A DNA stretch of 64,000 nt, from the sequence record MH494197.1, one strand, 5' to 3'. Numbering within the stretch: position 1 is the stretch's first letter; every line of letters starts with the position of its first letter. Below, one piece after another: positions 2,876 through 42,690 of this stretch. The notes under the pieces were generated by a model, which had not been told where the DNA came from, did not search any database, and saw only the letters and a program-made list of their open reading frames with translations. The DNA comes from Escherichia phage CMSTMSU. Position numbers and translations under genes: made by a program.

Positions 2876-2876
2876 A

Positions 2877-24351: not shown

Positions 24352-24636
24352 TTATTCACCTTGTTTGAATTTAGTTTTCTCCATTGATTCCATGATTGCA
24401 ACCAATACGCCGTGGATCTCGCTTAACGCGGAATCACTAAAAGCATTAATGAATAGTCGATCATTCTCGCGAATATTTTTAATGTACTTTTCAGCAGTAG
24501 TTGCGAATTCATTCAACGGTAGATCAAATGCTTTATCCCATGATGGATGGCGTAATTGTAACAGTACTGGATTATCACGATCACGGGAAAACGTACCAGT
24601 GATGAAACATACGCCCGAATACTTTCGAACTGGCAA
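24352..24636 (-). CDS. hypothetical protein (94 aa)
   Basis: Track ORF. Confidence 0.45.
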   Translation of the reverse strand: MPVRKYSGVCFITGTFSRDRDNPVLLQLRHPSWDKAFDLPLNEFATTAEKYIKNIRENDRLFINAFSDSALSEIHGVLVAIMESMEKTKFKQGE

Positions 24637-24994
24637 CGGACTTCCTTTGTGATAGTAGTATGAATGTACATTTATTGTTATCCTCTATTAAATTAATATT
24701 ACAGTTTATGAATCAATTCTTTATCTAAGCGATAGCGTACATTATTAATAGTAACGGCATTGTTTTAATGCTACGCTGTACAGGTCCACCAGCAATAACA
24801 AATGTTGCTTTATTACCCCGAACAATGATAGCACTTCCGTGATTACCGAAATCATCTTGTACTAAAATACTTGATAAGTTTTCCATTTTATTTCTCTTAG
24901 TAGGGAAGATGTTTCCTTGATGTAAGTACTATAACAGTACTGAAAACTAATTGCAAGTACTATGATAAAATCATGATAGGATATTCACTATCGA

Positions 24995-25279
24995 TCAGTA
25001 CCTCGAATCCGAACCCTTCGTACCATTCTTTAAGATTAAAGGCGTTATCTTCTCCGTATCGCATTCTAAGATGATACAATCTGAATCATCAGCGGCATCG
25101 ATAAAGGCATTCATTAATTCGTTACCTTCACCATTGCCCCGACTATCAGGATCAACATAAAGAGAATCAATGAAAGCAACACGGTCATAATCAAGATCCG
25201 GTGCAATGATTCCACGTTTAACAAACCAGTACTGCAATTGTGCTACTTTGCTGTACCTGATAACCAGTGATCTCGCCAT
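24995..25279 (-). CDS. GNAT-family N-acetyltransferase, central fragment (full frame-disrupted gene about 24971..25313)
   Basis: VAFIDSLYVDPDSRGNGEGNELMNAF resembles the GNAT acetyl-CoA-binding motif A; …LKEWYEGFGFEV continues in another frame. Confidence 0.55.
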   Translation of the reverse strand: MARSLVIRYSKVAQLQYWFVKRGIIAPDLDYDRVAFIDSLYVDPDSRGNGEGNELMNAFIDAADDSDCIILECDTEKITPLILKNGTKGSDSRY

Positions 25280-25462
25280 TGTCAGTAGTACGCGTGATAT
25301 GTTGTATTCCCATGATTTCTATCCTCAGTTAAGATATAAAACATTATACACTATCTTTCAGTACTGTCAATTACTTTTATCTCATAGATCTATGCCAACA
25401 ATTACGCGGATCTCTTTAAAAGTACTATCATGATCCTCCGGCAAGTAATACAATACATGCAC

Positions 25463-25630
25463 CTATAACGGCCCGGCGTCGATTCTCAGGGATTTTACCG
25501 CCGCAGTCGAGGCAATGTACAGTGATTCTCTTTGTGCGTTAATTTGCTTTCTAGCGTGGTTAACGGCGGCCTGAATCACTGCGTTAATCTCGTCTTGTTC
25601 GGCCCCGTCTTTCGCGAATCCTACAGCCAT
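25463..25630 (-). CDS. hypothetical small protein (55 aa)
   Basis: Hand-translated; MAVGFAKDGAEQDEINAVIQAAVNHARKQINAQRESLYIASTAAVKSLRIDAGPL. Confidence 0.4.
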   Translation of the reverse strand: MAVGFAKDGAEQDEINAVIQAAVNHARKQINAQRESLYIASTAAVKSLRIDAGPL

Positions 25631-25962
25631 TATTTTAACCTCATTATAAAAATACTATAGTACTGTAATGCTACAATAATACTACTAGTGCTAATCTTAT
25701 TCAAACCACATGATACTACATATCCACCAGCATTACCACGGATAGTAACGCCTTTGTACTGTCTATATAAATTCAACTGCGTATATTGCCTTTGATCAAG
25801 AATTGATCAGAATTATACGCCTTATGCTAAATTGATCCAGTACTTTTGATCATTTATTGATCGATGTTATATAGTTACATTTGTGCACCCTATGGGTTAG
25901 TGACGTTCTCGTCTTGATGTAAGTATTATGCCAGTACTGGAGGATATTGTCAATAGATTATT

Positions 25963-26160
25963 TTAATTTTTTCTATCATTAATTAATGCTTTCAGTACTA
26001 TACTAATAACTTGCAATGATTCATCAATGACAATGAAATTATTCTCTTTCATTAGATGATAGTTACCATTGATTGTATATTCTAACGAGTACTGTTTACG
26101 TTTAATTTTTGATAATGTTTCTATTTGTTTTTGTACTGATTTCATGCTAATCATTGTCAA
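25963..26160 (-). CDS. hypothetical protein
   Basis: Track ORF. Confidence 0.4.
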   Translation of the reverse strand: MTMISMKSVQKQIETLSKIKRKQYSLEYTINGNYHLMKENNFIVIDESLQVISIVLKALINDRKN

Positions 26161-26258
26161 ACGTCCTGTAACGCATTCTAACGAGATAAACGGTTGAGTA
26201 CTGGCATTGTATAGGGTAATGATTAAAGCCCACCAGCGTTAACCAGTGGGCTATAATC

Positions 26259-26402
26259 TTACATCTTGCGGATAATCTTAACAGTATCTTTCACCGATTT
26301 ACCGTTTTGCTGACATTGCTCGATCATCGCGTATTGTTCTGCGGTCAGATCCTCGCCAGTTTTTGCCAGTACTGCGTCGATGAATGAATCCAGTGCGATC
26401 AT
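26259..26402 (-). CDS. hypothetical small protein (47 aa)
   Basis: Hand-translated; followed by hairpin AGCCCAC…GTGGGCT. Confidence 0.4.
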   Translation of the reverse strand: MIALDSFIDAVLAKTGEDLTAEQYAMIEQCQQNGKSVKDTVKIIRKM

Positions 26403-28067
26403 TTTGTTTCTCTCTTAGGTTAAGTTAACTACTGTTTATAAAACTTATTATACAGTACTATCAAACTATGTCAATAGTACTGGTAATATATTTTAGCGGT
26501 AGTCGTCGTATGCTTTATTCACGGCGAATATAACTTTCAAAGGCTTCGTCTACCGTTTCATACTCCCGAACATAATCACCATATGAAACTACATACATAC
26601 CTTTTGATCTTCAAACGTCATGATGATAGAATCCAGACCAACGATTTCAGTTTTTGCGATGATAGCCATTTTTAATTCCTTAGTAGTGTAGTTGATAAAA
26701 GTTATTATGTCAGTACTATCAAACTATGTCAATAGTACTGTGATAATATTTTAGTTAATGATAGTCAGTGTAAAATTGTAATCCCCTGCCCGTATAGTAC
26801 TTTATCGCCGAACGTTCCAACACGTTTCATATTGCAATAGATACCCATAACACTTTTACATCTTTGATATTCCGAACGCCAGTAATATCCTTGTTTAAAT
26901 GATCGTGATCAGAAAATAAAACTTGTTTTGCATTTTTCAGTACAGTGCAGATATTAGCCATTTTGTTTTCTCTTCTGTTAGTGGGGAGAAGTTTTTCTCC
27001 CTTGATGTAAACTATTATACAGTACTATAATCTATTGTCAAACTATTTTTTATATTATTCGAAATCTTCTGGACCGGACTGATAATCATCTTCACCGTAT
27101 GCACTTTCTAACCGCTCGCCAGTGCAATCATCAGTTAGTGAGTCATCCTCATAGTTCACGTCTACGCCAGTGATGTAAAACTGGCTATCGTCTGGATCAT
27201 TGAAATTAATTTTCTGGATGTTTACAATAACTGTATTGATGCCGTGACACCGCCATCAGCCGTTACAAAGTACTGATATTTTTCACAACCGCCTGAATTG
27301 AAACCGTAATTAATTTCGGCCCGACCATCACTTAAACGCAGTGTCTGAGCGATGATTTCATTTTCAAAGTTAGATTGAGCAATTGCAATAGTCATGATTT
27401 GTTTCTTATTATCAGGGAAACCGTTTCCCTTTCGATGTAAAACATTATACGCTTATCAGGAAGTAATGCAAGTACTATTTCACGTTAATTTCAAAGTACT
27501 GCTCTTTGATGTTTTCCTGTTGGTAAATCTCGTTTAATGCTTTAAGATCTAAAACCTGTTTACCTGCTGCCTGAATATACTTTTAAGAGTCGCTAACAGC
27601 TTCTCAGGCGTGTTTGTAGTCTTACGTGTTGGGATCTTATCGTGCCCCATAGCGTAGTACTGCTTACGTGCTATAGTACTGATAACACTGCGGTACGGTT
27701 CCATGATCAGCTTGTCTGTATTCGTCGCTATCCCCAAACTTCATACCGTGGATCGCAAAGGTCATCATCATGCGGTCGTTATCGCGGATATTGTGGGGCA
27801 GTCGGCAAGCTCGCGAGTCAGTGACATAGTGATCCCCACGTCGCCACCCAGCGGTAAAGGTCGGGCGATAAAGAAACCGTTAGGGAATACTTTCAGGAAG
27901 TTTTCTTGAACTGCTGCGACGAATTCGATGCTATTCATAATTCATTTCCTTAATTAGTGGGGAAGTTGTTTCCTCTTGATGTAAAACATTATACGCCTAT
28001 TGAGATAGTTTGCAAGTACTTTCTACAAATACTTTTAAAATAGTTTTCAGTACTCAATACTCATATA

Positions 28068-28165
28068 ATAGATACACTTATGCACCCTGTGGGCTAGTGA
28101 GCTATCTCTCAATGAATATATAATAGCAAAATGGCTGACCGAGTCAACCACTTTTTCATTTATTT
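28068..28165. repeat. ~90-bp repeated intergenic element (copy)
   Basis: atagatacacttatgcaccctgtgggctagtgagctatctctcaatgaatatataatagcaaaatggctgaccgagtcaacc. Confidence 0.55.
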
Positions 28166-28271
28166 TAGCTTTTAGAATCGCCGCCTTTCGCGTCATGCCT
28201 TGCTTGATGTATTCTGTACTTTCGCTTTACGTGCATTCGCTTTATTTGCTTTCGTAAACGCCGAACAACTT

Positions 28272-28529
28272 TTATAGTTTAAACCTGTTGGATTCATTTA
28301 AATCACCATAAAGAATAGATAGGTTACTAACAACGCCGCGATCAATGCACCGACCGAACTGTAATAAGCTAATGATCTCATTTTTAGCCTGAAAATAATG
28401 TTTAATTTGAGCGGCGGTCAGTGCACAATTACGCAGGAAGTTTTCTGTATAACTTTTGCGAGTACTGAAAGAGAATTGACCTTTGCTGCTGCCGATAGTA
28501 ACATCAAACCGAGCGTTGTATTGTTTCAT
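28272..28529 (-). CDS. hypothetical protein (85 aa, start MKQYNARF)
   Basis: Track ORF trimmed to the ATG that follows the promoter cassette (ggagaaacaaaATG). Confidence 0.45.
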   Translation of the reverse strand: MKQYNARFDVTIGSSKGQFSFSTRKSYTENFLRNCALTAAQIKHYFQAKNEIISLLQFGRCIDRGVVSNLSILYGDLNESNRFKL

Positions 28530-28544
28530 TTTGTTTCTCCTGTT

Positions 28545-28625
28545 ATTGGGGAGAATCATTTCTCCCTTCATGTAAAACATTATACAGTACTAAAACTAAT
28601 TGCAAGTACTATTTTTAGATTTACG
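28545..28625 (-). promoter_or_regulatory. promoter + stem-loop cassette (copy)
   Basis: …ttgcaattagttttagtactgtataatgttttacatgaaGGGAGAAatgaTTCTCCCC… followed by ATG 28529. Confidence 0.55.
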
Positions 28626-29691
28626 CAAACTTTCTACCATCTCAGGAGTAAGGTCTGCGGGTAGGAAACTACTTCATCAACGAAACGTAAAGGAATACCC
28701 CAGCGAAAGGTGAACGTGCTTTCTTAGTATTACTCTTTTTGATGCTTTCATTTCATATTCTTAATTAGTGGGGAGAATCATTTCTCCCTTCATGTAAAAC
28801 ATTATACGCGTTTAAAACTAATTGCAAGTACTATTTGAAAGTAAATGCTCATACGCTACATTAACTACGTTTTCAATAACCGACTGTACAGAAAGATCCC
28901 CACTTCCGGCTATAGTAGAAATCGCTTACAGTAGTGTCATCGTATGCAAATACTTTACCGTGACTGCATCAATCACATACATATTAACCTTTAAGATGTC
29001 GATCTTATCCTGTACAGTAAGCATATTAATTAACCTTTTAAGTACTGACTTAAGTAATCTTGTTGATCTTCGGTGATTGCAGCCATCTTCCCTAGTACTG
29101 GATTAATGATATAATCCCTGTAACGTCCTGTAACGCATTCTCAGGCGGTTTAACGGCTGGGGTAGCCATAGCCATTGCCGACTTGTTCGACGCTGTAACG
29201 CTCATAAAGGCGGCATTCTTCCGGTGTTAACATAGCATCAATGCGTTTCATTGGTTTAATGATGCTTTCGATCTCATTCAGTACTTGATTAACGTTCATG
29301 GTATAATCCCAATATAAGCGGCCTAAATCGACCGCTAACGATGTTTTGATTAATAGGTGTATGGTTGACGTTCAAACAATGATTGCACGTTGTACGCCCC
29401 GCTTATGGGCTTTGCTGGTAAATCAATTTTATATTGTTCACGCTTAAAGATAATAAAACGGCAATTGTTTTAACATCAAAATTGATTGAACGTTCCGAGT
29501 TTACCATCGTGCACAAATACAAGATAACCGCTCGCTACTTGTTTTGTAGTACTGGTTGCAACCATAGACCGCCGAACATGTGTACCTGCGTCGATTAAAG
29601 TACTGATATTTTTCATTTTACTATCCTCTTAAGTTGATTTAATTTCTTTCCCTATGCAGACACTGTACCAAAGTATCTGCATAAAGTAAAG

Positions 29692-29973
29692 CTAATTAAA
29701 GATCTTTTTACGTTTTACATCCTGTACAGTACAATGCAACGGGATAGACAAATCATTGCACAAACGATAGAGGGAGGTTTCATCAGTATTAAGCCCGTCT
29801 ACTGATTCCTTTAAGAGAGATAACGCCGTTTGTTGGTATGCATCTTCATAGCCATAAGTAAATGATTCAACCGCCAGATCATTCAAGCCGTTATCCAGTT
29901 CGACGCTTACATGACAAGAATGATGTATTGCCATATGAATCAGACCAACGTTTACCGTCAACATTGATTGCAC
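29692..29973 (-). CDS. hypothetical protein (fragment; paralog of 22548..22745)
   Basis: An upstream frame encodes …VDGKRWSDSYGNTS…, the same motif as the 22.6-kb gene. Confidence 0.4.
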   Translation of the reverse strand: MQSMLTVNVGLIHMAIHHSCHVSVELDNGLNDLAVESFTYGYEDAYQQTALSLLKESVDGLNTDETSLYRLCNDLSIPLHCTVQDVKRKKIFN

Positions 29974-30338
29974 GGATTGCAGCCGAAACGGTGTTAATGA
30001 TAGTTTTAGCCATTTTAGTATTCCTTAAATTAATATGTGTCGTCTTGATAAAATCTATTATGCCAGTACTATCAAACTATGTCAATAGTACTGTGATAAT
30101 ATTTTTACTTACTTTTTGCTTTCTTTATTGCTTCCACCGGTCGGCCCATTCTTTACCCCATACTTGTAAATTATAATGGTACTGGCAAAGTGCAACGCCC
30201 CGCTTTAAACCAGTAATAGATTTTTACCACATTGACAAGTTTTCATTTTAGTTTCCTTGTAGTGGGAGAACCATTTTCCCCTTGATGTAATGTATTATAC
30301 TTTATTCGATTTACTTTGCAAGTACTTTTTAATTTAAT

Positions 30339-30551
30339 TCATCCGTAAAGGATACGCTCAACGCCCAAATCAGTTAAACTAATCGACGGCACTTGATAGG
30401 TTTCAATGTATGCTACACTTGCCCACTGACCGAACTCATTAACGGCCGTATTCATTGCATTTTGCAATTCCACACCTTCCTTGTTGGTAATGACTGCAAC
30501 TACTTGTTCGTTGCCAGTAGTACCAGATACGCGAGTAATGATAATAGCCAT
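30339..30551 (-). CDS. hypothetical protein (70 aa)
   Basis: Track ORF directly downstream of a promoter cassette. Confidence 0.5.
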   Translation of the reverse strand: MAIIITRVSGTTGNEQVVAVITNKEGVELQNAMNTAVNEFGQWASVAYIETYQVPSISLTDLGVERILYG

Positions 30552-30619
30552 TTTTTAATTCCTATTCAGTAGTTGATGTATGTATTATGCCAGTACTTAA
30601 AACTATTGTCAAACTATTT

Positions 30620-30772
30620 TTAAAGTTTATCAATGATTGATGCCGTTTCATTGATAGTCTTGCCGTGTTTTGCACACGCGATAACTGCTTTAAATTCCTT
30701 TGATGACCAATCTTTCTTACTGCATACTGACATTACTTGTAAAGTAAAACAATCCAGTTCATAAGTATTCAT
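30620..30772 (-). CDS. hypothetical small protein (50 aa)
   Basis: Hand-translated; MNTYELDCFTLQVMSVCSKKDW…. Confidence 0.4.
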   Translation of the reverse strand: MNTYELDCFTLQVMSVCSKKDWSSKEFKAVIACAKHGKTINETASIIDKL

Positions 30773-30985
30773 CTTTATATCCTCAGTTAGTTAAGGTGTC
30801 TGCCTTGATGTAATTAATTATACGCTAATCTCTTAATCGTGCAAGTACTTTTATTACTTTTTGCAAAATACTTTAAACGCTCTCAATCGCATTACAACGA
30901 CCTTAACGCCACCAGCTAGGCAATGCATCAGATAATCAGTTTAAAGCGTTAGAATCGTTTCTAGGCGGTGCTGGTGGCGTAAACG

Positions 30986-31015
30986 ATAAAAAAAGCCCAC
31001 CGTTTAAGGTGGGCT
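30986..31015 (-). terminator. rho-independent terminator (minus strand)
   Basis: Minus-strand AGCCCACCttaaacGGTGGGCT followed by TTTTTTTAT; 13 nt after the stop of 31028..31261. Confidence 0.6.
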
Positions 31016-31027
31016 AGTGATTCAGTT

Positions 31028-31261
31028 TTATGCTTCAACTTTGCGATGAGCTTCGATCCATTCCTCGCGAGTCATACCACTGGAGTTAATCGCGTCCAGT
31101 ACTACCGCAATGCAGTTACCACGCACCGGAATCAGATATTCTTCCCGTTGTACTACCGCTACGCGTTCCTGAATCCATTTTTGGCTTTTACTTCTGGCTT
31201 GTCTTCCCATACTTAACCGCCGTGGCTTTTGTGCCATCTCTGTAACTACTTCCAGATCCAA
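31028..31261 (-). CDS. C-terminal part of the preceding gene
   Basis: Overlapping frame; ends 13 nt before terminator hairpin. Confidence 0.4.
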   Translation of the reverse strand: MDLEVVTEMAQKPRRLSMGRQARSKSQKWIQERVAVVQREEYLIPVRGNCIAVVLDAINSSGMTREEWIEAHRKVEA

Positions 31262-31406
31262 CTACTGCCGCCTGAATACTTTCGATTGTTGCTTGTAGTT
31301 CTGCTTCACGGGCCGCCTTTGCCGCTTCAATTTCTGCCGCTTTATTTGCTTGTAGTTCTTTCGCAGTACTGTAAGCGATGTTAAAATTATTGCGTACCGC
31401 TTTCAT
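31188..31406 (-). CDS. hypothetical protein, Ala/Glu-rich N-part (frame-disrupted; continues in 31028..31261)
   Basis: Overlapping same-strand ORFs; gene followed by a terminator. Confidence 0.4.
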   Translation of the reverse strand: MKAVRNNFNIAYSTAKELQANKAAEIEAAKAAREAELQATIESIQAAVVGSGSSYRDGTKATAVKYGKTSQK

Positions 31407-31691
31407 GGTATCGTTATCCAGTTCAGCCGGATCTCAGCCGCGACGTTAGTTTCATTTGCACCAGTGCTTTGATGAATGATTTTACATTAGCCATTTTATA
31501 AATCCTCAATTAAAGTTTAGTTTACGTTTATTAGTGTATCAAAGTTTTCTGACGTGTCCAGTTTTTCGTTCGACTTACTGGCGGTCTACTTAGTGCTCCC
31601 CGTCTTGATGTAATACATTCTACGCCTTTTTGCGGTAATGTCAACTACTTTCTTAAAACTATTTTCAAAGTATCTCAGTACTACGATACTA

Positions 31692-31717
31692 CAAAACAAA
31701 AAGCCCACCCGTGGGCT
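31692..31717 (-). terminator. rho-independent terminator (minus strand)
   Basis: Minus-strand AGCCCAC-GGGTGGGCT hairpin followed by TTTTTGTTTT. Confidence 0.5.
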
Positions 31718-31979
31718 GTATTAATCAGTAAGTAAAATATTAAACACTTTACCATTTAACGTTATTGGTGCACTGCTACCGTGCTCAAGATCCGTTAGTA
31801 TACCTGCAATCGCTTTATCATTGGCGACCTTTCCAGTGTCCAACAGTACGACAGTACTGATAAGATTAACGCTCGTTTCAATATCATAATGCACGGCGTT
31901 AAGGAGTTGTGTATACTGCTTTCGTTAAGTAAAACTATTCGTGCTGTCATGATGTACCCGTAGTATCTATCAACGGCAA

Positions 31980-32267
31980 TTAATAACGCCGGAATGCGTT
32001 ACTTTCAGTATCCATAACAGTGACCGAACCGCGTTTAGTACTTGCATCGTAATAAATTGTCGTGCTACCTTTTTCGTCTTCTTCATGGAACGGCCCGTTT
32101 TTAAATGCTTCTGGCTGGATCTCTAAATCCTTTAAAACAATCTCGCCAGTACTTTCATTGGTCATCGCTACAGTGCACTGAATGAATTTTTCACTACTTA
32201 CATCTAACGACGCATTAACAGCGAAAGAGGAAACAGATAAAGCCGTGGCGATGATTGCAATTTTCAT
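31980..32267 (-). CDS. small secreted/periplasmic protein with N-terminal signal peptide
   Basis: MKIAIIATALSVSSFAVNA-SLD: hydrophobic core plus AxA cleavage-like site. Confidence 0.55.
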   Translation of the reverse strand: MKIAIIATALSVSSFAVNASLDVSSEKFIQCTVAMTNESTGEIVLKDLEIQPEAFKNGPFHEEDEKGSTTIYYDASTKRGSVTVMDTESNAFRRY

Positions 32268-32677
32268 TTGATTATCCTTAGTTACGGGAACCGCTCTTGC
32301 GATGTAAAATATTATACAGTACTAAAAACTATTATCAAGTACTTTATGATTTTTATAAAACATTTCAGCAGTGATATTTTACCCGTTGGCTGTACTTTAT
32401 CCAGAATTTTTGATGTCCGGCCGTCCAAATGAATATGATCCGTAAACCGTAAACCAGTAGTTACCCTCAGTGTTTACATGTACAGCATAATAGGGAACGC
32501 CCGCGATTCATCACTAGTAAAGTGTGCTACCGTTCCGTTACATTCGCAGACGTTGATTTGATTTGTTCAAGCATTTTATTATTCCTTAGTTACCGTGGGA
32601 ACTGCTCCTATGCAAAACATTATACGCGTTTAAAACTAATTGCAAGTATTTTAATAAAAGTATTTGAAAAATAGTTG

Positions 32678-32706
32678 TTGACAAGTGCATCCAGTACTGG
32701 CATAAT
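32678..32706 (+). promoter_or_regulatory. plus-strand consensus promoter (TTGACA-N17-CATAAT)
   Basis: TTGACA 32678-32683, CATAAT 32701-32706; faces a terminator about 100 nt downstream. Confidence 0.4.
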
Positions 32707-32712
32707 TACTAC

Positions 32713-32815
32713 ATCAAGACGAAACAGTCACTAACCCACCGGGTGCATAGATCCGTCTATTAAATGATTCAGTACTGAAAAGTAACGGGAGTTATTATCT
32801 CCCCGTTGTTATTTT
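32713..32815 (+). ncRNA. candidate small RNA (promoter to terminator, about 100 nt)
   Basis: No ORF; ends with hairpin AACGGGAG-ttattat-CTCCCCGTT + T-run; contains the repeated GCACCCxxTGGG element in inverted orientation. Confidence 0.25.
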
Positions 32816-33029
32816 GTGGTATAAACAGAAGTCGCCTTTATTTGCTACGCCGCCAGTGTAACGCGAGGAATAGTCACCCGACTTCTGCTATTACCAGTGT
32901 ATCATCATTCAATTCGCGCAAACGGCTGGATCTTGTACGCCGATTTTGTCGGCATGTTCCCGCATAGATTTAACCAGTGCTTCCAGTTGGGAAAGAGTAG
33001 TGATATTAGCCATTGTATTTTCTCATTAC

Positions 33030-33100
33030 CGTGGAGAACCATTTCTCCCTTTGATGTAAAACATTATACAGTACTGAAAACTAATTGCAAGTACTTTTTA
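33030..33100 (-). promoter_or_regulatory. promoter + stem-loop cassette (copy)
   Basis: Same conserved TATAATGTTTTACATCaa + GGGAGAA/TTCTCC module. Confidence 0.5.
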
Positions 33101-34750
33101 ATATTGTTTGTCGTCGTCTTCCTCGATGAATTGACCGACGAAATGATCTACTTTCGCTTTGAGGCTTTTATAATCTTCTTCTACTTCCTTTAAACGTTCC
33201 GTAGTATTCCAGTGCCTCAACATATGCGGCCTCAGCCGTTTTCTCACGCATAGCTAAATTCATTCCACGCGTTTCATCAAATAGCCAAAACCATCGGTGC
33301 ATTCACTGATAGACAATGATTTGTTTAACACATTGTACTTTATTACTTTACTCATTAGATAACCTCAGTAAAGGCGGGAACTATTACCCGCCTCGATGTA
33401 AAGTATTATACGCTTTTAAACTTAGTTTGCAAGTACTTTTAAATTAATATTCGATTGATTCTACTACGCCATCAATAACATTGAATTGATACTCGTTTCA
33501 ATCAGTGCCGTAATGTTTTCCAGTAGTGAATTGATCCTCATATGCATTCTCTAAATCACGGTACAACTTGCGGGACAATTCACGAATAGTGTCAGTGAGT
33601 AGTTCCTCAAGCTCATTAACTAACGTTTTTGTTTTGCGGTTAAATCCAGTGTAAGCCGATTCAATGTACCCGCTTACAGTATTCTTGAGTAGTGGGAGTG
33701 CGAACGCTTTACACTCATCGCCAAACCATCTTCATTCAGCAAGTGACGGATTGAGCGATTAGTTAATGCTTTACCTTGCGTAAAACTTCACTGCGTCAAC
33801 GTGGTCAGTACTGATTGATGCACCGTCCCCGGGACCAAAAGCCACTGAATCGTAAATCAGCGTCATTAATGCCATATTCCGGTAGTACTGTTTCAGTATT
33901 CATTTCACTTTCAGAAAAATAATCATCGTTTAAGTTTTTTCACGTTCCCGAACCAGTTCGATAGCTGACGTTTGTTGTTCTGCGTTCAATTCAGAAAAAT
34001 CCATAACGAAAGTAGTAGTAGTGATAGTTTTCATTTTGTAACCCTCATTCAGTAGTTGATGTAAGTATTATACGCTTTAAAAACGTCAAACTATTTTATC
34101 AGGGAGTTTTGTGCCTATTCCTCGGCTACTTAACGGAAGTTACTTATTTGTTCCCCGTCCTGATGTAAAACATTATACGCCTTTAAACATAGTTTGCAAG
34201 TACTTTTAAAAATAGTTTTCAGTACTGAATATTAAAAAGTATTGACAGCATTATCAGTACTAATATAATTCCCATGACAACAGCTAACCCACGGTGCAAT
34301 TGTAACTGTAATAAACTTTTTCTAGATACACTTCCGCACCCTATGGGCTACGGCTTATCTGCCAATGAATACATTATGCCAGTACTGACAAAATAAGTCA
34401 ATACCGGCAATTGTAAAGATTTGTAAACTGCTTATACTGCAATCGCGTCCGTGCTATAATAATAATAAGTGCTATGGTGTGACTTACCTTTTATTTCAGT
34501 ACTGAATGAATCCGAACGATTTGCATATGATGTTAATTTAAAGTACTTTGATTTGTTGATACGTTACACCACAGATCCGCGTAAGTAGTTTTATTAGTGG
34601 TAGTATCTTTACGGTTTTAACTTCAGTCATATACATATTAGTCATTTTTATTACTCCGAGTTATAGGGGAACTATTCCCGCTCTCGATGTAAAACATTAT
34701 ACGCTTTTAAACTTAGTTTGCAAGTACTTTTATTCAAGTACTGCAATCTT

Positions 34751-34975
34751 TTAGTACGGTACACGGTCACGCGGTTGCTTTCGGTCGAGCTTTATTTCTA
34801 CCACTCGACGCGATACACTATCAGGACTTTTCAACGCCGCTAACCAGTACTGTAATGATCTGGCTGTACTACGCTTTACAATGGCCCAACGTTTACCACG
34901 TTCCGATTGTACGCCCATATCTTTAAACGTTGCCCGTCCGGCGTGCTGCGATCCGAGCTTGTTCACGCGTCGCAA
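34751..34975 (-). CDS. hypothetical basic protein
   Basis: Track ORF. Confidence 0.4.
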   Translation of the reverse strand: MRRVNKLGSQHAGRATFKDMGVQSERGKRWAIVKRSTARSLQYWLAALKSPDSVSRRVVEIKLDRKQPRDRVPY

Positions 34976-35348
34976 AATACTTAATATTCATGTTGTTCTT
35001 ATCGTTGGTGTATGAATAAACACTATTATAAAGTACTATCATCGTGCAATAGTACTTTAAATCTATTCTATTACATTCCAACCATTGCAGCACGGATCGA
35101 TAGTGCTATATTTGAATCCGTCCGGTGTTTTTCTTGTCCAGTCTGTTCTAAAAAATAACATCATATGACGGGCCGCATCATTGCGATTAGTGCTATCGTT
35201 AATAAAGTCCCAACTGGTATAATGATTCATCGTTATTAATCCAAAGGCTTACATTCCAATGAGTTTTGTTTTTGTGACCTAAGAACATTTTGATTTAGCC
35301 ATTTTTAATCTTATATAGTGGGGAACTATTTCACCCTGATGTAAAACA

Positions 35349-35576
35349 TTATACGCTTTTAAACTTAGTTTGCAACTTTATTAAACTTATTTGTAATTTT
35401 GCACTGTCAGCCCATACTGTGAAACGATGCATATTATCCCATGCATCTTGTTTTAAATTTAAACTGTGCAATTCCTCAGTAGTTGCTATCCCCATTGGCT
35501 TACTACACACCGCGAAATTTTTCTCCATGTACTGATAAACCATCGTTAAATCATTTGAGATCATTACATGGATCAT
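35349..35576 (-). CDS. hypothetical protein
   Basis: Track ORF. Confidence 0.4.
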   Translation of the reverse strand: MIHVMISNDLTMVYQYMEKNFAVCSKPMGIATTEELHSLNLKQDAWDNMHRFTVWADSAKLQISLIKLQTKFKSV

Positions 35577-36130
35577 TGAATCAGCTATGAAGTAGCGTAT
35601 TGTTCACGCACGGCAACGGTTCCCGATAAGCTGTAAATGTGAATTTTACAGTTTCAGCCGGAAGACCTTTCATTTCACGGAAGTTAACCGTGTTAAGCAT
35701 GATTTTATTGATTTGAGTCGCCATCGTTTTAATCTCTTAATGTAGCGGGAAGTGTTCCTGCCTCGATGTAAAACATTATACGCTTTTATCAGTATGCAAG
35801 TACTTTCTACAAATACTTTTAAAATAGTTTTCTCTATATAGGGAACTATTATTCAGTACTGCAACCATCCGTGGGAACTATCTTTCTATAGTAGTACTAT
35901 TATTCAGTACTGAATCAATCCACCAAATCATCCTGATACCCGTAAAACGGCCTCAGACGCATTCTAACGCATTAATACACCTAAGCTATACATTTGCACC
36001 ATTCCAATCTTGGCTGGGCCGTTTAAACGCGTTAAATTATTTTCAATTATTTTGTTTTAGCTATTGACTCAGTACTAAAAAGCGTATAATTACACATAGA
36101 CGCGAGAAAGGAAACCAGAGGGTGCGGAAT

Positions 36131-36644
36131 TACGCCCAAAATTCAAGATATAAAAAAAGGATACACCGCACCCTAGCAGGTTAACGCACTTTCTAGTACT
36201 GAAATATAGTAACATAGTCCGCTGATAGCAAGCAATTAAAACTTTTTCATCCGGTATTGCTTTATTTTTCCAGTACTGTATAATAGTTCCATCGTCGAGA
36301 AAGACTCAGCCCACCGTATAGTTACGCCCAAAATTCAGTACTGAAAATTTTAAAAATATCCGTCCGTGCGCGTTGTTCCCCCAGTTTATAAGATAATGAT
36401 TCCAGACTCCAGAACGGTTCATCCCACGCGGTAGGGGAACTATTGGAAAACAAAATAAAATTTTGATTTAGCCGTCTATACTTCCAGACGTGTAACCATC
36501 TAGCCGTTTAGCTGTCCAAACGTCAGCCATCCAGCCATCCAGAAATCTAGCCGTTTAGCCGTCCAGATGGATAGCCATTTCCAGACTTCTGAGGGCTAGA
36601 CATATCTACGTCCAAAATCCATCCGTGGTAACTACGCCCAAAAT
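36131..36644. repeat. dispersed 12-bp motif TACGCCCAAAAT (3 exact copies + 1 variant)
   Basis: Exact at 36131, 36323, 36633; variant TACGTCCAAAAT at 36607. Confidence 0.5.
36500..36566. repeat. direct repeats CTAGCCGTTTAGC(T/C)GTCCA x2
   Basis: Copies at about 36500 and 36548, with AGCCATCCAGCCATCCAG between them. Confidence 0.5.
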
Positions 36645-37380
36645 CCGTCAGTACTATACCATAGATCATCTTTGGAGTATTCAGTACTGCCATCAGCCCC
36701 TCACATGTTACCCTAGGAGGATGAAGATCACCGCGGTACTGAATACTGTTAGAGGGAATCCACCAGCTTGGTGGTATAATCGTTTAGATTAAAATCAGTA
36801 CTGACACCATTCTGTTAATATCAGTACTGTTATTGATTTTCATATGAGGTTCAAAAAGATGTACCCACCACAGGAGGAACTATCTTTTCTGTACTGTCTC
36901 ACAGGAGGTAGAGTAAATGAATCGTTCGCAACTCATCTCTATGTAGAACATTATACAGTACTGAATCATAATGTCAATAGCTTTCTTTCATTATTCAGTA
37001 CTGATATTCTTGAGAACTACCCGACTACAAACATCATTATATCCCACAAATCATAAACGTCCCAACGTAAATTTCAACTTTCGAAGATCCAACTTTATTT
37101 CATAGGTACTCCAAAATTTTAGGATCGAGATTTAGGATGGAGTACTAACCAACTTTTGCTGAGCTCTGGATATTAAGGTGAAAGTAATAATTCAGTAATT
37201 AATCATTGGTGATTACTTTTGATTACATTTGATGTAATTTGCAAAATGGAAAAGGAGCTTGAAACTAGTACGGCAGACTTCCTCTGCCTACTAGGTGCTG
37301 GTTTCATCTATCGGAGGGAAATGGATTAACCTTAGCAATACGTAACTGAATACGTTCTTGATTAAACGTGCACATTCCTG

Positions 37381-37410
37381 TACTCTATTACACTCTAGTA
37401 CACTCTAGTA
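37381..37410. repeat. tandem 10-bp direct repeats (TACTCTATTA / CACTCTAGTA x2)
   Basis: Three adjacent 10-bp units in an ORF-free region. Confidence 0.6.
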
Positions 37411-37429
37411 CTCAATACTGATCACTACA

Positions 37430-37488
37430 ATGATTATAAATGATTACTTAAATGTTTATATATGATTACTTATGACTACATATGATTA
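37430..37488. repeat. iteron array: six ATGATTA-like boxes at 10-12 bp spacing
   Basis: Boxes begin at 37430, 37440, 37452, 37462, 37472, 37482. Confidence 0.6.
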
Positions 37489-37816
37489 GGGTTTACTGGG
37501 AGAATCTAGTGATCGCATTTGTCCAGCTGAATTTTAACATATATAACATATGTTAAAGCCTGTCCAATGCTTCTGCGGAGCTTCTGTCTATATGTTGAAT
37601 TACTTCCTATATATAAGCATTAACATATAGTAGTACTGATTATGCTGTACATTCTCTTTAATATTATAAGGGTCTATAGCAATCTCGGTACATCTGTTAA
37701 ATGCATATCTATTAAATGCCAGTACTATTATAGATCTAATCCATGCTTGGTCAGTCGGTGGTAGTTTACTTATATAGTACTCTTTATAGTTTTTATGTTC
37801 TGCATAGTATACCTTA

Positions 37817-37996
37817 TTATTTCAAAGTACCATATAGTACTCTTAATAGGAAGTAGTACGTATTAGAGATATCATTACTAGTTAAAACAATCTTTGTACA
37901 CATATTAAATTCGTATTGAGTCATTGCTGGGATTAAATTGTTAACCCATGCTTGTTCGTTTTCTTTGAGTTTACTTATATAGAAGTCTTTATACAT
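37817..37996 (-). CDS. hypothetical protein, MYKEFY family (59 aa)
   Basis: Hand-translated MYKDFYISKLKENEQ…; below the track cut-off. Confidence 0.45.
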   Translation of the reverse strand: MYKDFYISKLKENEQAWVNNLIPAMTQYEFNMCTKIVLTSNDISNTYYFLLRVLYGTLK

Positions 37997-38228
37997 AGTA
38001 TTATCTCTATTAATATGATAGTACTAGTGTTAGTACTGAGCACAATTGTTCTTTATAGTTCTTAGGGTATATAGAATCTTTTATGCACTCATTGAAGTGC
38101 CATAGGTATAATCTTGGGTCGCATTCTTTATATATTTTACGCCATAGGTATATATCTTGGGTCGCATTCTTTATATATTTTTTACGGGGACGAATGTTAG
38201 TTTTCTTATATAGAAGTCTTTGTGTTCT

Positions 38229-38438
38229 TTATTCATATAGGAATAGTATACCTATGATGCCTGAGTACATGTTAGTACTGTTATTATTGGCGTTTGCGTT
38301 TAAAGTCATTTGAATACAATTGTTGTAGCATAATCTGCCGAAATATGTATCAGTACTTAAAGGTGCAGTAGTCCTTAGAAACATTTGTTCTGTGGGGCTG
38401 AGGTGTTTGGAGTAGAATTCTTTATGTTCATTATTCAT
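38229..38438 (-). CDS. hypothetical protein, MYKEFY family
   Basis: MNNEHKEFYSKHLSPTEQMFL…. Confidence 0.5.
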   Translation of the reverse strand: MNNEHKEFYSKHLSPTEQMFLRTTAPLSTDTYFGRLCYNNCIQMTLNANANNNSTNMYSGIIGILFLYE

Positions 38439-38634
38439 AGATATATAGGAGTGCCATTATGTTGGAGTATAGTTTATTGTTGTCATTTTCTTGCAGTGCT
38501 TGTATAGTACTACGTATACAGTTATTATAGCATATTTTTGTGAAATTATTTTGTAATTTCATTTTCATTGGTTTTGCTTTATAGAATGATTGTTTTGTGG
38601 GACTAAGATGATTTATGTAGAACTCTTTATACAT
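38431..38634 (-). CDS. hypothetical protein, MYKEFY family
   Basis: MYKEFYINHLSPTKQ…. Confidence 0.5.
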   Translation of the reverse strand: MYKEFYINHLSPTKQSFYKAKPMKMKLQNNFTKICYNNCIRSTIQALQENDNNKLYSNIMALLYIYE

Positions 38635-38651
38635 GTTAGTACCTTAGTGCT

Positions 38652-38837
38652 TTAGTGTCTGTATATAAGTAATAGTAAGAATACGTACTGCACCTGTTCA
38701 TCTTTAGTATTGAGTACTGTACGTATTGCGTCATTAAACAAAAATATAGTACTTGGGTCATTAGAATTTAAGGGGTTTACGGGGACGGCGTGTTTGTAGT
38801 TCCCTTTAACAAATTGTATATAGTATTCTCTATGCAT
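38652..38837 (-). CDS. hypothetical protein, MYKEFY family
   Basis: MHREYYIQF…. Confidence 0.5.
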   Translation of the reverse strand: MHREYYIQFVKGNYKHAVPVNPLNSNDPSTIFLFNDAIRTVLNTKDEQVQYVFLLLLIYRH

Positions 38838-38838
38838 A

Positions 38839-39027
38839 TCAGTACCTATATATTAGGGCGAGAATGTAGTACAGTTCATATGGAATGTAATTTGGGGTGA
38901 TAGCACACTGTGTATGGTAAATGAATTGTTGGGTATTTTTCTTATCCTTGATATCTATTGGGTTTAGTGGTATAAGCATTTGGGAGTTTAGTTCCAGATG
39001 GTTTAAGTAGAATTCTTTGTTATTCAT
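38839..39027 (-). CDS. hypothetical protein, MYKEFY family
   Basis: MNNKEFYLNHL…. Confidence 0.5.
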   Translation of the reverse strand: MNNKEFYLNHLELNSQMLIPLNPIDIKDKKNTQQFIYHTQCAITPNYIPYELYYILALIYRY

Positions 39028-39226
39028 AGAAGAATATTAGTCCCATTACGCCTGAGTACTGAATATTTTTGTTATTGTTTTCTAAAGCTTCTAGAGTAAT
39101 ACGTATACAATTATTAAAGCAATCTCTGGCGTGTGGTGTATCTAAACGTAAAGGTGATACACTCCTTAGAAACATTTGTTCTGATGCACTGAGGTGTTTG
39201 GTGTAGAATTCTTTCTGTTCGTTCAT
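39020..39226 (-). CDS. hypothetical protein, MYKEFY family
   Basis: MNEQKEFYTKHLSASEQMFL…. Confidence 0.5.
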   Translation of the reverse strand: MNEQKEFYTKHLSASEQMFLRSVSPLRLDTPHARDCFNNCIRITLEALENNNKNIQYSGVMGLIFFYE

Positions 39227-39236
39227 ATTGGCCTCT

Positions 39237-39425
39237 TTAGTACACGAAAGCTAGGTACAGTGTATGATACAGTACTCGATGATAGCTATCAAAATCTAGT
39301 ATACATGCTTTAGTGCACATAGTAAAGTACACTTTATCGTTTTGAGCATTGATACCGCGAGGTTTATCTAATAGATTAGTACTGAGGTACATTGGGAAAT
39401 ATTTTGTGTAGTATTCTTTATGCAT
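39237..39425 (-). CDS. hypothetical protein, MYKEFY family
   Basis: Track ORF 39237..39470 trimmed to the family-typical start MHKEYYTKYF. Confidence 0.45.
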   Translation of the reverse strand: MHKEYYTKYFPMYLSTNLLDKPRGINAQNDKVYFTMCTKACILDFDSYHRVLYHTLYLAFVY

Positions 39426-39807
39426 ATTAGTACCTGAATATAAGTAGGATAGTGTTATATAATTGGTCATAGCTACTACTATTTTCTATACTGCGTTCTA
39501 TGCAATTATTGAATCCCAGTACTGCCAAATCGTTATCCGGGGGACTTTATATCTGGCGTAGTGTTCAAATATACTGGGAGAAATTGTGTGTAGTATTCTT
39601 TGTGCATATTAGTACCTATATATTAGTAAAAGGATGTGATACAGTACTCGATTATAGTCTTCAATATATATCGAGGATTTAGTGCACTGAATGAAGTAGT
39701 CTTTTTCGTAGTTTTTTCTATACCCAATGGTTCTGTTGGTAGAAGGTGTTGGAGATACATTGGGAGTTTCTCTATGTAGTATTCTTTGTGGTTATTCATA
39801 TTATGTG

Positions 39808-39981
39808 TTATTTCGTGAAAACAAGGGTTAGTACTGCATAGTACAAGTCATACGTATCTTTAGGGTTAATAGCACCTTTAATACATTCTTTCATTACTTC
39901 ATTATAGATAATTTTAGTACTGAATGTATTGGATGTTACTATATCGGAATTAAGGTACGAGAGGTAGAATTCTTTATACAT
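39808..39981 (-). CDS. hypothetical protein, MYKEFY family
   Basis: Track ORF 39808..40044 trimmed to the internal MYKEFYLSYL start. Confidence 0.45.
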   Translation of the reverse strand: MYKEFYLSYLNSDIVTSNTFSTKIIYNEVMKECIKGAINPKDTYDLYYAVLTLVFTK

Positions 39982-41019
39982 AGTTTGAAATATACGTAAT
40001 GAGGTGATGAAATTTCTTATCAGTACTGATAAGTTCCTGTACATGTTTTGTTAGTTTGTACGCGTTTTATAGAGTCCGGATTATCGATTACAGTACTGTA
40101 CATGAATAGATCTTCTTCTGATAATTCTTTGCCGGTAATTCTTTGAGGAATTGCAGTACTGTATCAGTTTCGTTAGTACGTTGCTTTTGGAAGAAGTGCA
40201 TGTTATCGTGTATTTTTCTGAACCCATGCAGTACATATCTCCGATTTGGAATTGTGCAGTACTGATATCATGGGTGCTATTACAATTCCCGAAGAAGTAT
40301 ACATTCCCGAAAGATAGAATTATAGTGCACGGGATATTATCCATGTGTATATAGATAGATGCATTCTTTAGTGCTTTTGTGCTGGTATTAGTACTCAATA
40401 CTTTTAAATCAGTATTATAGATATTAATAAAAGCAAGAGCTATATTATTTTTCTTCAAGTACGATTTGAGGTTCTTAGATACGAGAACATTTCTGGATTT
40501 TTCTTTTTATTTCGTTTCTTTAGTATATTCGGGTGATACGTATAAGATGATGTAACTGATTCTGCTTGAATACTGTTGAGGTATTTAAAGTGCTTAAGGT
40601 ATTGTTTGCTGTGTGCATTAAGTTTCATTTGGTTTCCTTTATACAGATGCGAGTGCGAGGATTTCCCTGAAGGGATTATCTTTTGTTAGTGCGTGATGAA
40701 TGCAGCTATTGAGATTAATATTTTTAGTACTGTTAGTTGCCGTTGTAGTACTTCACGAAGGTGTCGTACATGAAACGGTCTTTAATGCTTATGTGTTCTA
40801 TATAGTATTCTTGCATATTATTCCTTACATAGAGATGAGTTTCAGTACATCAATATACATATAACGTTCAGATGACTGTACACGGGTAGTGATAATCTCA
40901 ATCGATATATTTTAATTCCATGTGCAGATGATTGATGGTGCTGAATAAATGAGTTGTGCATACTTTGTTCTATGTGGTTTAGTTTATTGAAGTAGTACTC
41001 AAAAGTGTTCATGTCTACC

Positions 41020-41199
41020 TTAGATTGAGATTAGTTTAAGTACTTCTCTGTATGTGTACTTTTCGTTTTGTGCTTCTACTGTACATGATAGTAGGTATCG
41101 TTTTTTATCTCTTTTGTTCCCGACTGTGTAGTACCTTTGGAATTTATTATAGTTGTATCTATCTTTGTGCTGGAGTTTATAGATATAGAATTCTTGCAT
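41020..41199 (-). CDS. hypothetical protein, MYKEFY-related family (59 aa)
   Basis: Hand-translated MQEFYIYKLQHKDRY…YREVLKLISI, paralog of 41208..41393. Confidence 0.45.
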   Translation of the reverse strand: MQEFYIYKLQHKDRYNYNKFQRYYTVGNKRDKKRYLLSCTVEAQNEKYTYREVLKLISI

Positions 41200-41207
41200 A
41201 GAGTACC

Positions 41208-41393
41208 TTAGATTGCTATCAGTTTCAGTACTTCAATATATGTGCGGTACTCTGCTTTAATTAAATTTGTACACACTGTAAGGGAATTTCTTTGTATAAG
41301 TTTATTGCCGCTTTTATACGCATTTCTCCACACATAGAGATGAGATCTTTCAGGCATAGATAGTTTATTTGTATAGTACTCAAATGTATTCAT
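41208..41393 (-). CDS. hypothetical protein, MYKEFY-related family
   Basis: MNTFEYYTNKLSMPERSH…YIEVLKLIAI. Confidence 0.5.
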   Translation of the reverse strand: MNTFEYYTNKLSMPERSHLYVWRNAYKSGNKLIQRNSLTVCTNLIKAEYRTYIEVLKLIAI

Positions 41394-41995
41394 ATATTAC
41401 CTCAAATAGAGATTAGTTTAAGTACTTCTCTGTATGTGTACTTTTCGTTTTGTGCATCTCTTGTGCTTGTATATAGGTATCCTCGACGATATTTGTTGCT
41501 CCCGTTCTTGTAGTTGAATTCGAACTTATTGTAGATGAATCTATCGCCGCTGTAATTTACTTAAGTACAATTCAATGCTCATAGTATTCTCTTTACATAT
41601 CAATAAGTTTCAGTACTGCTCTGTACGTGTACTTAGTTGTTAGTGCTTCTTTATAGCAATACAGAAGTAATGTTGTTTGTCTCTTATACTACCGCGTTTG
41701 TAGTACCATACATTGGAGTTGTGGGTGTACTTGTCCCTGTCGGATAGATTTTGGTAATAGTATAATATATGATTCATGGTAATGTAATTAGCCTTATTAT
41801 GTTAAAGTACTCGGTCCCCGTACACCTTGTAGAATATTATCAACTACATTTTCTTGGTGCAGGATTAATACATTCGGTGCGGTTCTTTTAAGGTTTTTAA
41901 AGTACTGTATTCTTGTTTAAGGATGAACTGTACATCTTTAGGGAGAATATCTAAGTAGTACTGGTGTATGTTCATAGTTTTCATATAGTACTCTT

Positions 41996-42181
41996 TTAGA
42001 ACTTAAAGATGAGGTTCATGATAGATAAGTACTTAGTTTCAGGAAATTGATGTTCTATTGCATAACGTGTCTCCAGTCTGAAGTCAAATTTATAAAAGGG
42101 ACTATTCATATCCATAGGTTCATTGGGAAATGAATCTCTGTATTGTTTGTGCAGCTTACTACAGTAGAATTCTTTATACAT
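41996..42181 (-). CDS. hypothetical protein, MYKEFY family
   Basis: MYKEFYCSKLHKQYRD…. Confidence 0.5.
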   Translation of the reverse strand: MYKEFYCSKLHKQYRDSFPNEPMDMNSPFYKFDFRLETRYAIEHQFPETKYLSIMNLIFKF

Positions 42182-42182
42182 A

Positions 42183-42395
42183 TTAGTGCTCGATTAAAAG
42201 GGTTAGGATGTAATAGTATTGCATACTTTCTACCCCTTGTACAGCATTTCTTATTTTATTATTCCTGTACGAGTTCAAGAGTTTAGGACAATGTTTGAAG
42301 TTTATATAATTATTTTGTGTATACAGTAGGCTTTCTCGTAGACCTTTTGTTGGTAGTGCATCGATGTAGTACTGTTCAATGTTCATAGTGTTCAT
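42183..42395 (-). CDS. hypothetical protein, MYKEFY-related family
   Basis: MNTMNIEQYYIDALPTKG…. Confidence 0.45.
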   Translation of the reverse strand: MNTMNIEQYYIDALPTKGLRESLLYTQNNYINFKHCPKLLNSYRNNKIRNAVQGVESMQYYYILTLLIEH

Positions 42396-42690
42396 AGAGC
42401 TACCAGTACTAAGATTTTTGATAATTGTTTGTTTCTATCCCGCAGATGTTGTTGTGTAAAATGCTCACTACAAGGGTATCAAGTGCATTGTTCAGCATAA
42501 GGTTACATCCAGTACTGTTATATTTTTTAGCTCAATTAGCCACGAACAATCCGCGAGAAATTTCCCGTACTCTAGTTCATTTAGCGTATTAATGTAGTAC
42601 TTAAGTGCATTTGTCATGTACAGTTCTCCTTATATTCCTTCTATAGTACATCAGTACTGAAAGGTTGTCAAGGGTTTTCTTTTTGGGGTA

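Follow-up and report, generated by a model that had tools for sequence, protein, structure and literature searches.

A tandem array of small paralogous genes beside the terminal repeat of Asteriusvirus jumbo phages

Bacteriophage SPO1 has a host-takeover module of about 25 mostly small early genes, which have strong host-type promoters and ribosome-binding sites, are located in or near the terminal redundancy and are individually dispensable (PMC6873191). Here we describe a comparable locus in the genome of Escherichia phage CMSTMSU (sequence record MH494197.1). The analyzed stretch of this genome is 64,000 nucleotides (nt) long and is called the window below. It contains 22 tandem genes encoding proteins of 57-75 amino acids (aa) on the minus strand at 37,600-42,617, with a 219-aa gene of another family inside. 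We refer to this locus as the array and to its proteins as the 60-aa family.

We regard the SPO1 module as the closest analogy to the array in placement and gene style: in the window, too, small genes under a host-type promoter are found beside the terminal redundancy. However, the SPO1 proteins have no sequence or fold relationship to the array proteins. The SPO1 genes are mostly unrelated to one another and are organized in several operons, whereas the array comprises 22 paralogs in a single putative operon located just outside the repeat. Host shut-off has been shown for SPO1, whereas for the array we only infer it.

In phage CBB, RpoD-like promoters mark a region of short open reading frames (ORFs) beside the terminal repeat, and the authors interpret this region as early (PMC5259590). 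In PA5oct, a distant relative, RNA sequencing demonstrated that terminal-repeat genes are transcribed early and from one strand (PMC7318152). Thus, these related jumbo phages also have short hypothetical ORFs by or in a long terminal repeat, with either RpoD-like promoters (CBB) or early one-stranded transcription (PA5oct), but homologues of the 60-aa family were not detected outside the genus Asteriusvirus. According to a proposal by Hua and co-authors, who cited 121Q, jumbo genomes may grow by tandem duplication (PMC5646251). The tandem paralog arrays of jumbo phages discussed there (phage G, 121Q) are comparable to the array in the genus (121Q), in the origin by tandem duplication and in the neighbourhood full of paralog arrays, but the 60-aa family is far more diverged, with 20-40% identity between paralogs. 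Finally, the multigene families (MGF) of African swine fever virus and the terminal host-range families of poxviruses consist of paralogs near genome ends, whose copy number varies between isolates and which are presumed to play a role in host interaction. These viruses belong to a different realm and their proteins are unrelated to those of the array; the analogy is limited to family dynamics.

Jumbo phages are candidates for phage therapy, and most of their genes have no known function. In Asteriusvirus about 5 kb of the genome is occupied by one fast-evolving family of tiny proteins, in a place where early host-manipulating genes usually lie. Databases already list the genes as hypothetical proteins, some of them under a PHROG, and for a different array of 121Q tandem duplication has been noted before. 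We found no paper describing the 60-aa family in the literature searched. The superfamily definition, the layout of the array, its hypervariability and its promoter context are new.

Organization of the array

A sequence-only reading of the window had reported about 18 paralogs of about 60 aa at 37600-42400. The existence of a tandem family of small minus-strand paralogous genes is borne out by intact collinear reading frames, a ratio of nonsynonymous to synonymous substitution rates (dN/dS) of 0.46, a common PHROG and profile-profile links. The place was indicated properly, but the number of members is 22 and the right end had to be moved: the array extends to 42,617 and its promoter to 42,671. 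The two 59-aa ORFs that had been cited (37817..37996 and 41020..41199) are present exactly there. The start-to-start spacing, given as 200-250 bp, is in fact about 180-215 bp. Besides undercounting the copies, that reading missed the division into subfamilies, the foreign gene inside the array and the frameshifts of the assembly.

Six-frame scans of the whole 64 kb with hidden Markov models (HMMs) detected family members only at 37,603-42,617 and only on the minus strand; there are none elsewhere in the window or on its plus strand. ORF calling repeated with a lower minimum length (30-35 aa) gave a series of ORFs of 56-78 aa on the minus strand, with gaps in places. All 21 intact proteins of phage WPEC5 map onto the window by tblastn, and the gaps correspond to copies that are split between frames. 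In total, ORFs are intact in 12 of the 22 copies and interrupted in ten. Tandem Repeats Finder found no nucleotide tandem repeat of ~190-200 bp because the paralogs are too diverged. A structured RNA was rejected as an explanation: there are no Rfam matches anywhere in the window.

The genes are tightly packed. In the intact WPEC5 array the intergenic gaps range from -8 to +11 nt, and AGG from the last codons of the upstream gene sits at the ribosome-binding-site position of the next start. The start context TCTTTATACATGTTAGTAC, noticed from the letters alone, is indeed repeated, with one exact occurrence (38624-38642) and three more at no more than 3 mismatches versus 0.08 expected by chance. 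Its conservation is due to conserved coding ('...R/K-Y-stop, 1 nt, ATG-(Y/H)-K-E'). The reading frames are intact and collinear in WPEC5, fEgEco12, 121Q and JNE01, and they are also intact and syntenic in ECO103. The genes are real and protein-coding. Judging by its layout, we describe the locus as one predicted polycistronic operon of a lineage-specific multigene family with 22 tightly packed genes.

Subfamilies, predicted fold and evolution of the family

All-against-all BLASTP divided the array proteins into four subfamilies. The 13 copies of subfamily A have the pattern MxKEFY...N-x-C-T/I...LIYRY ('MYKEFY'). The six copies of subfamily B are basic, with a net charge of +5 to +6, and have the C-terminus ...YTYREVLKLISI ('...EVLKLISI'). 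Subfamily C includes two copies of 70 aa, while subfamily D is represented by a single copy, the first gene (75 aa); the C and D copies are more diverged. The description 'MxKEFY...C(T/I)...(L/I)YxY/E' originally offered for the whole family is therefore correct for the 13 members of A but not for the six B, two C and one D members.

Seven of ten tested window proteins match PHROG 11711 (phrog_11711) with E-values from 1.9e-27 to 4.8e-7. All seven belong to subfamily A and match the whole 62-position profile (positions 1-62), whereas two B members and one C member had no match at E <=0.01. This PHROG has no attached function, and the superfamily and the 22-copy operon go beyond it. Comparison of profiles by hhalign linked A to B (E 1.7e-6, 55 columns), A to C (E 2.3e-5, 57 columns) and C to D (E 6.4e-4, 59 columns), in all three cases over essentially the full length. 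As controls we used reversed and column-shuffled templates, which gave E-values of at least 0.005, and two unrelated families of the window (Families 1 and 2, see below), which gave 0.02-0.6. On the basis of these comparisons we treat A, B and C as one superfamily and D as its probable member; D falls short of certainty because its only link runs through C. In the combined alignment a single Tyr of the N-terminal helix is invariant, a Leu of the C-terminal helix is nearly so, and a central Cys is half-conserved. 'LS..E..F' motifs had suggested that the three small-gene families of the window might share an origin, but this was rejected by hhalign, which gave E-values of 0.02-0.6 and matches over short fragments only.

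According to the AlphaFold2 model built from the family alignment, a subfamily A protein is predicted to be compact and to consist of four helices (H1-H4) at positions 2-8, 12-20, 30-48 and 52-66, with a predicted local distance difference test score (pLDDT) of 88.7 and a predicted template modelling score (pTM) of 0.71. For subfamily B, an alignment of B members alone yielded a model with helices at 2-7, 11-26, 29-44 and 49-58 (pLDDT 79.3). Thus two independently built models, compared by helix order, have four helices in the same order. The proteins are soluble, as judged by negative grand average of hydropathy (GRAVY), contain 10% tyrosine and have isoelectric points (pI) of 5.5-9.6 and net charges from -2 to +6. 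No signal peptide or transmembrane character was found in the family proteins. There are 0-2 cysteines per member, just one Cys column attains ~52% conservation and CxxxC occurs in only 3-4 copies. Therefore a small zinc-binding protein was rejected: with so few Cys the four conserved Cys/His ligands are not there.

Similarity searches did not point to a function. A Foldseek search of the model against the PDB gave nothing at E <2, and a search against viral models (BFVD) returned only Asteriusvirus members of the same family, with no informative match. Sequence-profile searches against Pfam and the PDB gave no match. PADLOC defence HMMs produced only scattered single-member matches among 33 members, with E-values of at least 0.0027.

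The window region matches 40 phage records at 80-99% identity, of which 36 are from phages of E. coli or Salmonella and four from phages of Enterobacter; the matches listed are jumbo phages of ~350 kb and of the 121Q/PBECO4 type (genus Asteriusvirus). The phage of the window is itself an E. coli jumbo phage of this genus, similar to 121Q and PBECO4. The array aligns collinearly with WPEC5 CDS0073-0093, 121Q gp249-265 and fEgEco12 g596-613, all annotated as "hypothetical protein". A word-indexed search of 5.8 billion proteins resulted in 48 clusters, and an exhaustive HMMER search of 1.84 billion representative proteins found 37 relatives, all of 59-75 aa. Both searches returned only proteins of 57-98 aa. 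With a 68-aa member as a query, tblastn against the phage collection found 33 records, all of them E. coli or Salmonella jumbo phages. Some array genes lack annotation in several GenBank records; in particular, the orthologue of this member is unannotated in 5 of the 25 records listed (PBECO4, UB, Sharanji, phAPEC6 and Turkey3). The most divergent relatives belong to Asteriusvirus JNE01 and to short contigs from metagenomes, which carry the same array of small genes including a 224-aa gene. Two divergent members were traced to contigs, and both contigs are Asteriusvirus. No relatives outside the genus were found: every match that was checked for its source comes from Asteriusvirus.

The pooled dN/dS of 0.46 was obtained for WPEC5 and 121Q orthologues; for WPEC5 and JNE01 the pooled value is 0.27, calculated from two orthologue pairs only. 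The regional values are 0.28 for H1, 0.72 for H2 plus its loop, 0.47 for H3, 0.79 for the H3-H4 loop and 0.26 for H4. The family is thus under moderate purifying selection: constraint is strongest in the first and the last helix, and variability is greatest in helix 2 and its loop. The content of the array changes quickly. The flanks of the array in JNE01 and in the window share 76-98% nucleotide identity, whereas the array itself gives only two short matches at 68-72%. In the complete records examined there are 16 copies in 121Q, 20 in WPEC5, 20 in fEgEco12 and 22 in the window, where a copy was gained. The operon order (D, C, A, C, several B, the 219-aa gene, several A) is kept from phage to phage, while the blocks of B and A genes grow and shrink. 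With this rapid turnover of content between otherwise similar phages, the array forms a hypervariable island.

Such turnover could be neutral. Tandem duplications might simply have filled an enlarged capsid, with the copies drifting under little or no function, in line with the proposal of Hua and co-authors citing 121Q (PMC5646251). For phage genes, 0.46 is a high dN/dS, the copy number varies through gain or loss of entire copies, and homology reveals no function. Nevertheless, we consider neutral filling improbable. Although the paralogs share only 20-40% identity, every well-assembled genome examined has all frames intact, and dN/dS is well below 1, falling to ~0.27 in H1 and H4. The promoter, the Shine-Dalgarno site, the tight gene spacing and the D-C-A-C-B...-A layout are also conserved.

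Promoter context and possible function

A candidate promoter, TTGACA-17-TACTAT, is located upstream of gene 1. It has an A-rich stretch on its 5' side and a spacer with CAGTACTG, and it is followed by AAGGAG. It is invariant in four phages (that of the window, WPEC5, 121Q and fEgEco12), and JNE01 keeps it as TTGACA-17-TACAAT despite the differing array content. The TTGACA...AGTACTG signature is common to the array promoter and the strong promoters of the terminal repeat. In phage fEgEco12 the direct terminal repeats are 20,993 bp long and experimentally confirmed (PMC13070987). Mapped from fEgEco12, the repeat occupies approximately 16,260-37,340 of the window, and the last array gene ends ~260 bp from its boundary. 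The window therefore represents a collapsed junction that joins both ends of the linear genome. The literature searched contains no transcriptome or functional study of Asteriusvirus; from the type of the promoter and its conservation together with the Shine-Dalgarno site, and in line with the early regions of CBB and PA5oct, the operon would be transcribed early by the host RNA polymerase.

In our opinion, the array is best read as an early, fast-evolving arsenal for host takeover or counter-defence, a reading whose chances we put at about even and in which the function is deduced from the context. Rounds of tandem duplication followed by divergence within Asteriusvirus jumbo phages would have given rise to the family. 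The host RNA polymerase would transcribe the operon early from the TTGACA-17-TACTAT promoter, and the operon would belong to a block of co-oriented small genes longer than 40 kb that includes the array, the 21-kb terminal repeat and two more paralog arrays. The least certain part of this explanation is the mechanism. Each paralog may be a small binding protein, in which conserved H1 and H4 form a scaffold and the partner of the variable middle, a host or host-defence protein, differs from paralog to paralog. The array would then be a diversified arsenal of individually dispensable members, subject to gene birth and death under an arms race. If the proteins are indeed host-takeover or counter-defence factors, each phage would supply about 20 new small inhibitors, and the array would also be a host-range marker between near-identical phages.

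A more specific version can be proposed, although we find it rather unlikely as it stands. It presents the array as a library of miniature four-helix binders with a fixed H1/H4 scaffold and a hypervariable helix-2/loop, in which each copy neutralises a different immune or housekeeping protein of the host. If so, the set of copies would help to decide which E. coli or Salmonella strains the phage infects. The array would then parallel, in a phage, the multigene families found near the genome ends of large eukaryotic DNA viruses, and new small protein inhibitors could be obtained from it.

The location next to the RCC1-like genes might point to a role in the virion. The array proteins could be small structural or DNA-associated proteins, either packaged in the inner body and ejected or acting as assembly chaperones for the RCC1-like virion proteins. 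In the part of the phAPEC6 virion proteome table that was covered, the rows jump from gp347 to gp549 and gp551, which are annotated as RCC1-like and are virion-associated, and phAPEC6 is described as having a capsid inner body (PMC7247149). The RCC1-like genes are the divergent neighbours of the array, and the basic charge of subfamily B (+5 to +6) would suit such a role. On the other hand, no array gene is among these rows, although a 4.7-kDa protein was detected in that proteome. The array promoter is of the host sigma-70 early type, not of the late type, and the copy numbers do not track the RCC1-like array. We judge a structural role to be very unlikely.

Position in an early operon would also suit regulators of the phage's own programme (anti-sigma, appropriator-like or small nucleic-acid-binding proteins) that are not aimed at host defences. 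Some phage transcription modulators, e.g., AsiA of T4, are likewise small and all-helical, and some members of the family are basic. However, 22 fast-diverging copies with presence/absence variation are not what is expected of core regulators, and no similarity to any known regulator was found. This makes regulators an improbable alternative, much like neutral filling.

Several observations weigh against a host-takeover or counter-defence arsenal as well. In the searches that were run, no resemblance in sequence or fold was seen to any characterised protein of host takeover, anti-restriction, anti-CRISPR or defence. An acidic DNA mimic of the Ocr/ArdA type was rejected, as the proteins have pI of 5.5-9.6 and charges of -2 to +6. 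The dN/dS of 0.46 can be explained by relaxed constraint just as well as by diversifying selection, and no region exceeds 1. The array promoter is a consensus match only. The absence of array genes from the covered rows of the phAPEC6 proteome is weak evidence because small proteins are easily missed by virion mass spectrometry.

The terminal repeat has several features of its own. It is present in the window as a single collapsed copy of ~21 kb (at ~16,260-37,340), and at its left boundary the G+C content changes from ~0.31-0.35 to 0.36-0.41. About 20 near-perfect sigma-70 promoters lie on the minus strand at 17,580-36,977, and 12 of them score 12/12 (TTGACA-16/17-TATAAT). These promoters often have the AGTACTG spacer element, an A/T-rich upstream part and the conserved start region 'AGTTTACATCAAG', followed by an inverted repeat, e.g., GGGAGAAtagTTCTCCC. 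The inverted repeat (GGGAGAAtagTTCTCCC) is likely to form a 5' stem-loop, and the whole unit looks like a repeated early-promoter cassette. At 36,796-36,829 on the minus strand, ~120 bp downstream of a perfect promoter at 36,977, there is a terminator-like inverted repeat with a 14-bp stem, flanked by CAGTACTG palindromes and followed by ATTTTAATCT. The gap between the array and the repeat (37,382-37,488) contains three copies of the 10-bp ACTCTAGTAC and two to three 22-bp units of the AATGATTA type. These short tandem repeats could be related to terminus formation.

Interrupted copies and neighbouring families

The coordinates of the array genes and of their predicted signals are listed in Table 1.

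Table 1. Genes and predicted expression signals of the array (window coordinates)
Feature	Subfamily	Length (aa)	Counterpart or sequence trait	Coordinates	Strand	State or basis
Predicted sigma-70-type promoter			TTGACA, 17 nt, TACTAT	42643..42671	-	promoter scan, then sequence reading
Predicted Shine-Dalgarno site			AAGGAG, 8 nt before first start codon	42626..42631	-	sequence, conserved in relatives
Gene 1	D	75	WPEC5 CDS0093 / 121Q gp249	42392..42617	-	frameshifts at 42438, 42524
Gene 2	C	70		42183..42395	-	intact
Gene 3	A	61	MYKEFYCSKL...	41996..42181	-	intact
Gene 4	C	70	WPEC5 CDS0090	41774..41984	-	frameshifts at 41819 (CCTGG site), 41894
Gene 5	B	61	WPEC5 CDS0089	41593..41777	-	frameshift at ~41650
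Gene 6	B	60	WPEC5 CDS0088	41402..41582	-	2-nt deletion at 41549 (CCAGG site)
Gene 7	B	61		41208..41393	-	intact
Gene 8	B	59		41020..41199	-	intact
Gene 9	B	62	WPEC5 CDS0085	40825..41012	-	frameshift at 40910
Gene 10	B	59	WPEC5 CDS0084	40639..40816	-	2-nt deletion at 40742 (CCAGG site)
Embedded gene	not a family member	219	WPEC5 CDS0083 / 121Q gp256	39974..40628	-	five frameshifts
Gene 11	A	57, from ATG at 39981		39808..39981	-	intact
Gene 12	A	63	WPEC5 CDS0081	39609..39799	-	frameshift at 39712
Gene 13	A	60	WPEC5 CDS0080	39427..39607	-	frameshifts at 39539 (CCAGG site), 39576
Gene 14	A	62, from ATG at 39425	best phrog_11711 match, E 1.9e-27	39237..39425	-	intact
Gene 15	A	68	CFNNC type	39020..39226	-	intact
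Gene 16	A	62		38839..39027	-	intact
Gene 17	A	61		38652..38837	-	intact
Gene 18	A	67	MYKEFYINHLS...; no counterpart in WPEC5; AlphaFold-modelled	38431..38634	-	intact
Gene 19	A	69	CYNNC type	38229..38438	-	intact
Gene 20	A		121Q gp264 orthologue	38010..38236	-	43-bp tandem duplication (38099-38181) and 1-nt frameshift
Gene 21	A	59		37817..37996	-	intact
Gene 22	A	68	WPEC5 CDS0073; last in operon	37600..37806	-	1-nt deletion at 37790, near start

Frameshifts in 10 of 22 copies and in the 219-aa gene of the window could mean that these copies are true pseudogenes and that the array is decaying in this phage. We called indels by base-level alignment to WPEC5 and to ECO103 4-12-1, an independent, short-read-style assembly. 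All indels inside the array relative to these two genomes are deletions in the window, 1-3 nt long and mostly 1-2 nt, and nearly all of them are located in T or G homopolymers or at CCAGG/CCTGG (Dcm) sites. Deletions at homopolymers and CCWGG (Dcm) sites (e.g., at 39539, 40078, 40742, 41549 and 41819) occur across the whole window, outside the array as well. Deletions of this kind are a signature of nanopore basecalling error. The pattern suggests that the window is an unpolished nanopore-type assembly of Dcm-methylated phage DNA. The broken copies are therefore read as assembly errors, and pseudogenisation, rejected by the indel pattern relative to two independent genomes, appears extremely unlikely to us. 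With such an assembly, ORF prediction is unreliable throughout the window. Nearly half of the array genes are broken in long-read assemblies that, like this one, were left uncorrected, and thus gene counts in such regions cannot be relied upon.

The plus strand at 42,727-64,000 is occupied by a divergently transcribed array, whose RCC1/WD40_RLD-like paralogs carry the annotation 'regulator of chromosome condensation' or 'DNA condensation protein'. The start of its first gene is masked by frameshifts in the window. Neither the copy numbers nor the promoter type agree with a one-to-one pairing of the small genes with this array, and the idea was therefore dropped.

The embedded 219-aa gene was considered as a family member with an insertion, and this was rejected, as the family HMMs gave only marginal scores (~4-5 bits). 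Its C-terminus has the 'sEEE-F-x-Y-S-x-v-D' signature of the paralog family located at 1-10 kb of the window, and the C-terminal profile of that family matches it in hmmsearch with E ~1e-7 (a single comparison); it is the only array gene that belongs to that family. That family, Family 1, consists of 100-200-aa paralogs on the minus strand at 1-10,240 with the C-terminal motif 'LSEEE(F/Y)FQxSLVxD' and corresponds to WPEC5 CDS0620-0648. Family 2 follows on the same strand at 10,230-16,160 and includes ~30 tandem genes of 58-89 aa with the motif 'LGTNYQE..V..YI..L' (WPEC5 CDS0649-0676). This family, unrelated to the 60-aa family by hhalign, abuts the other side of the terminal repeat.

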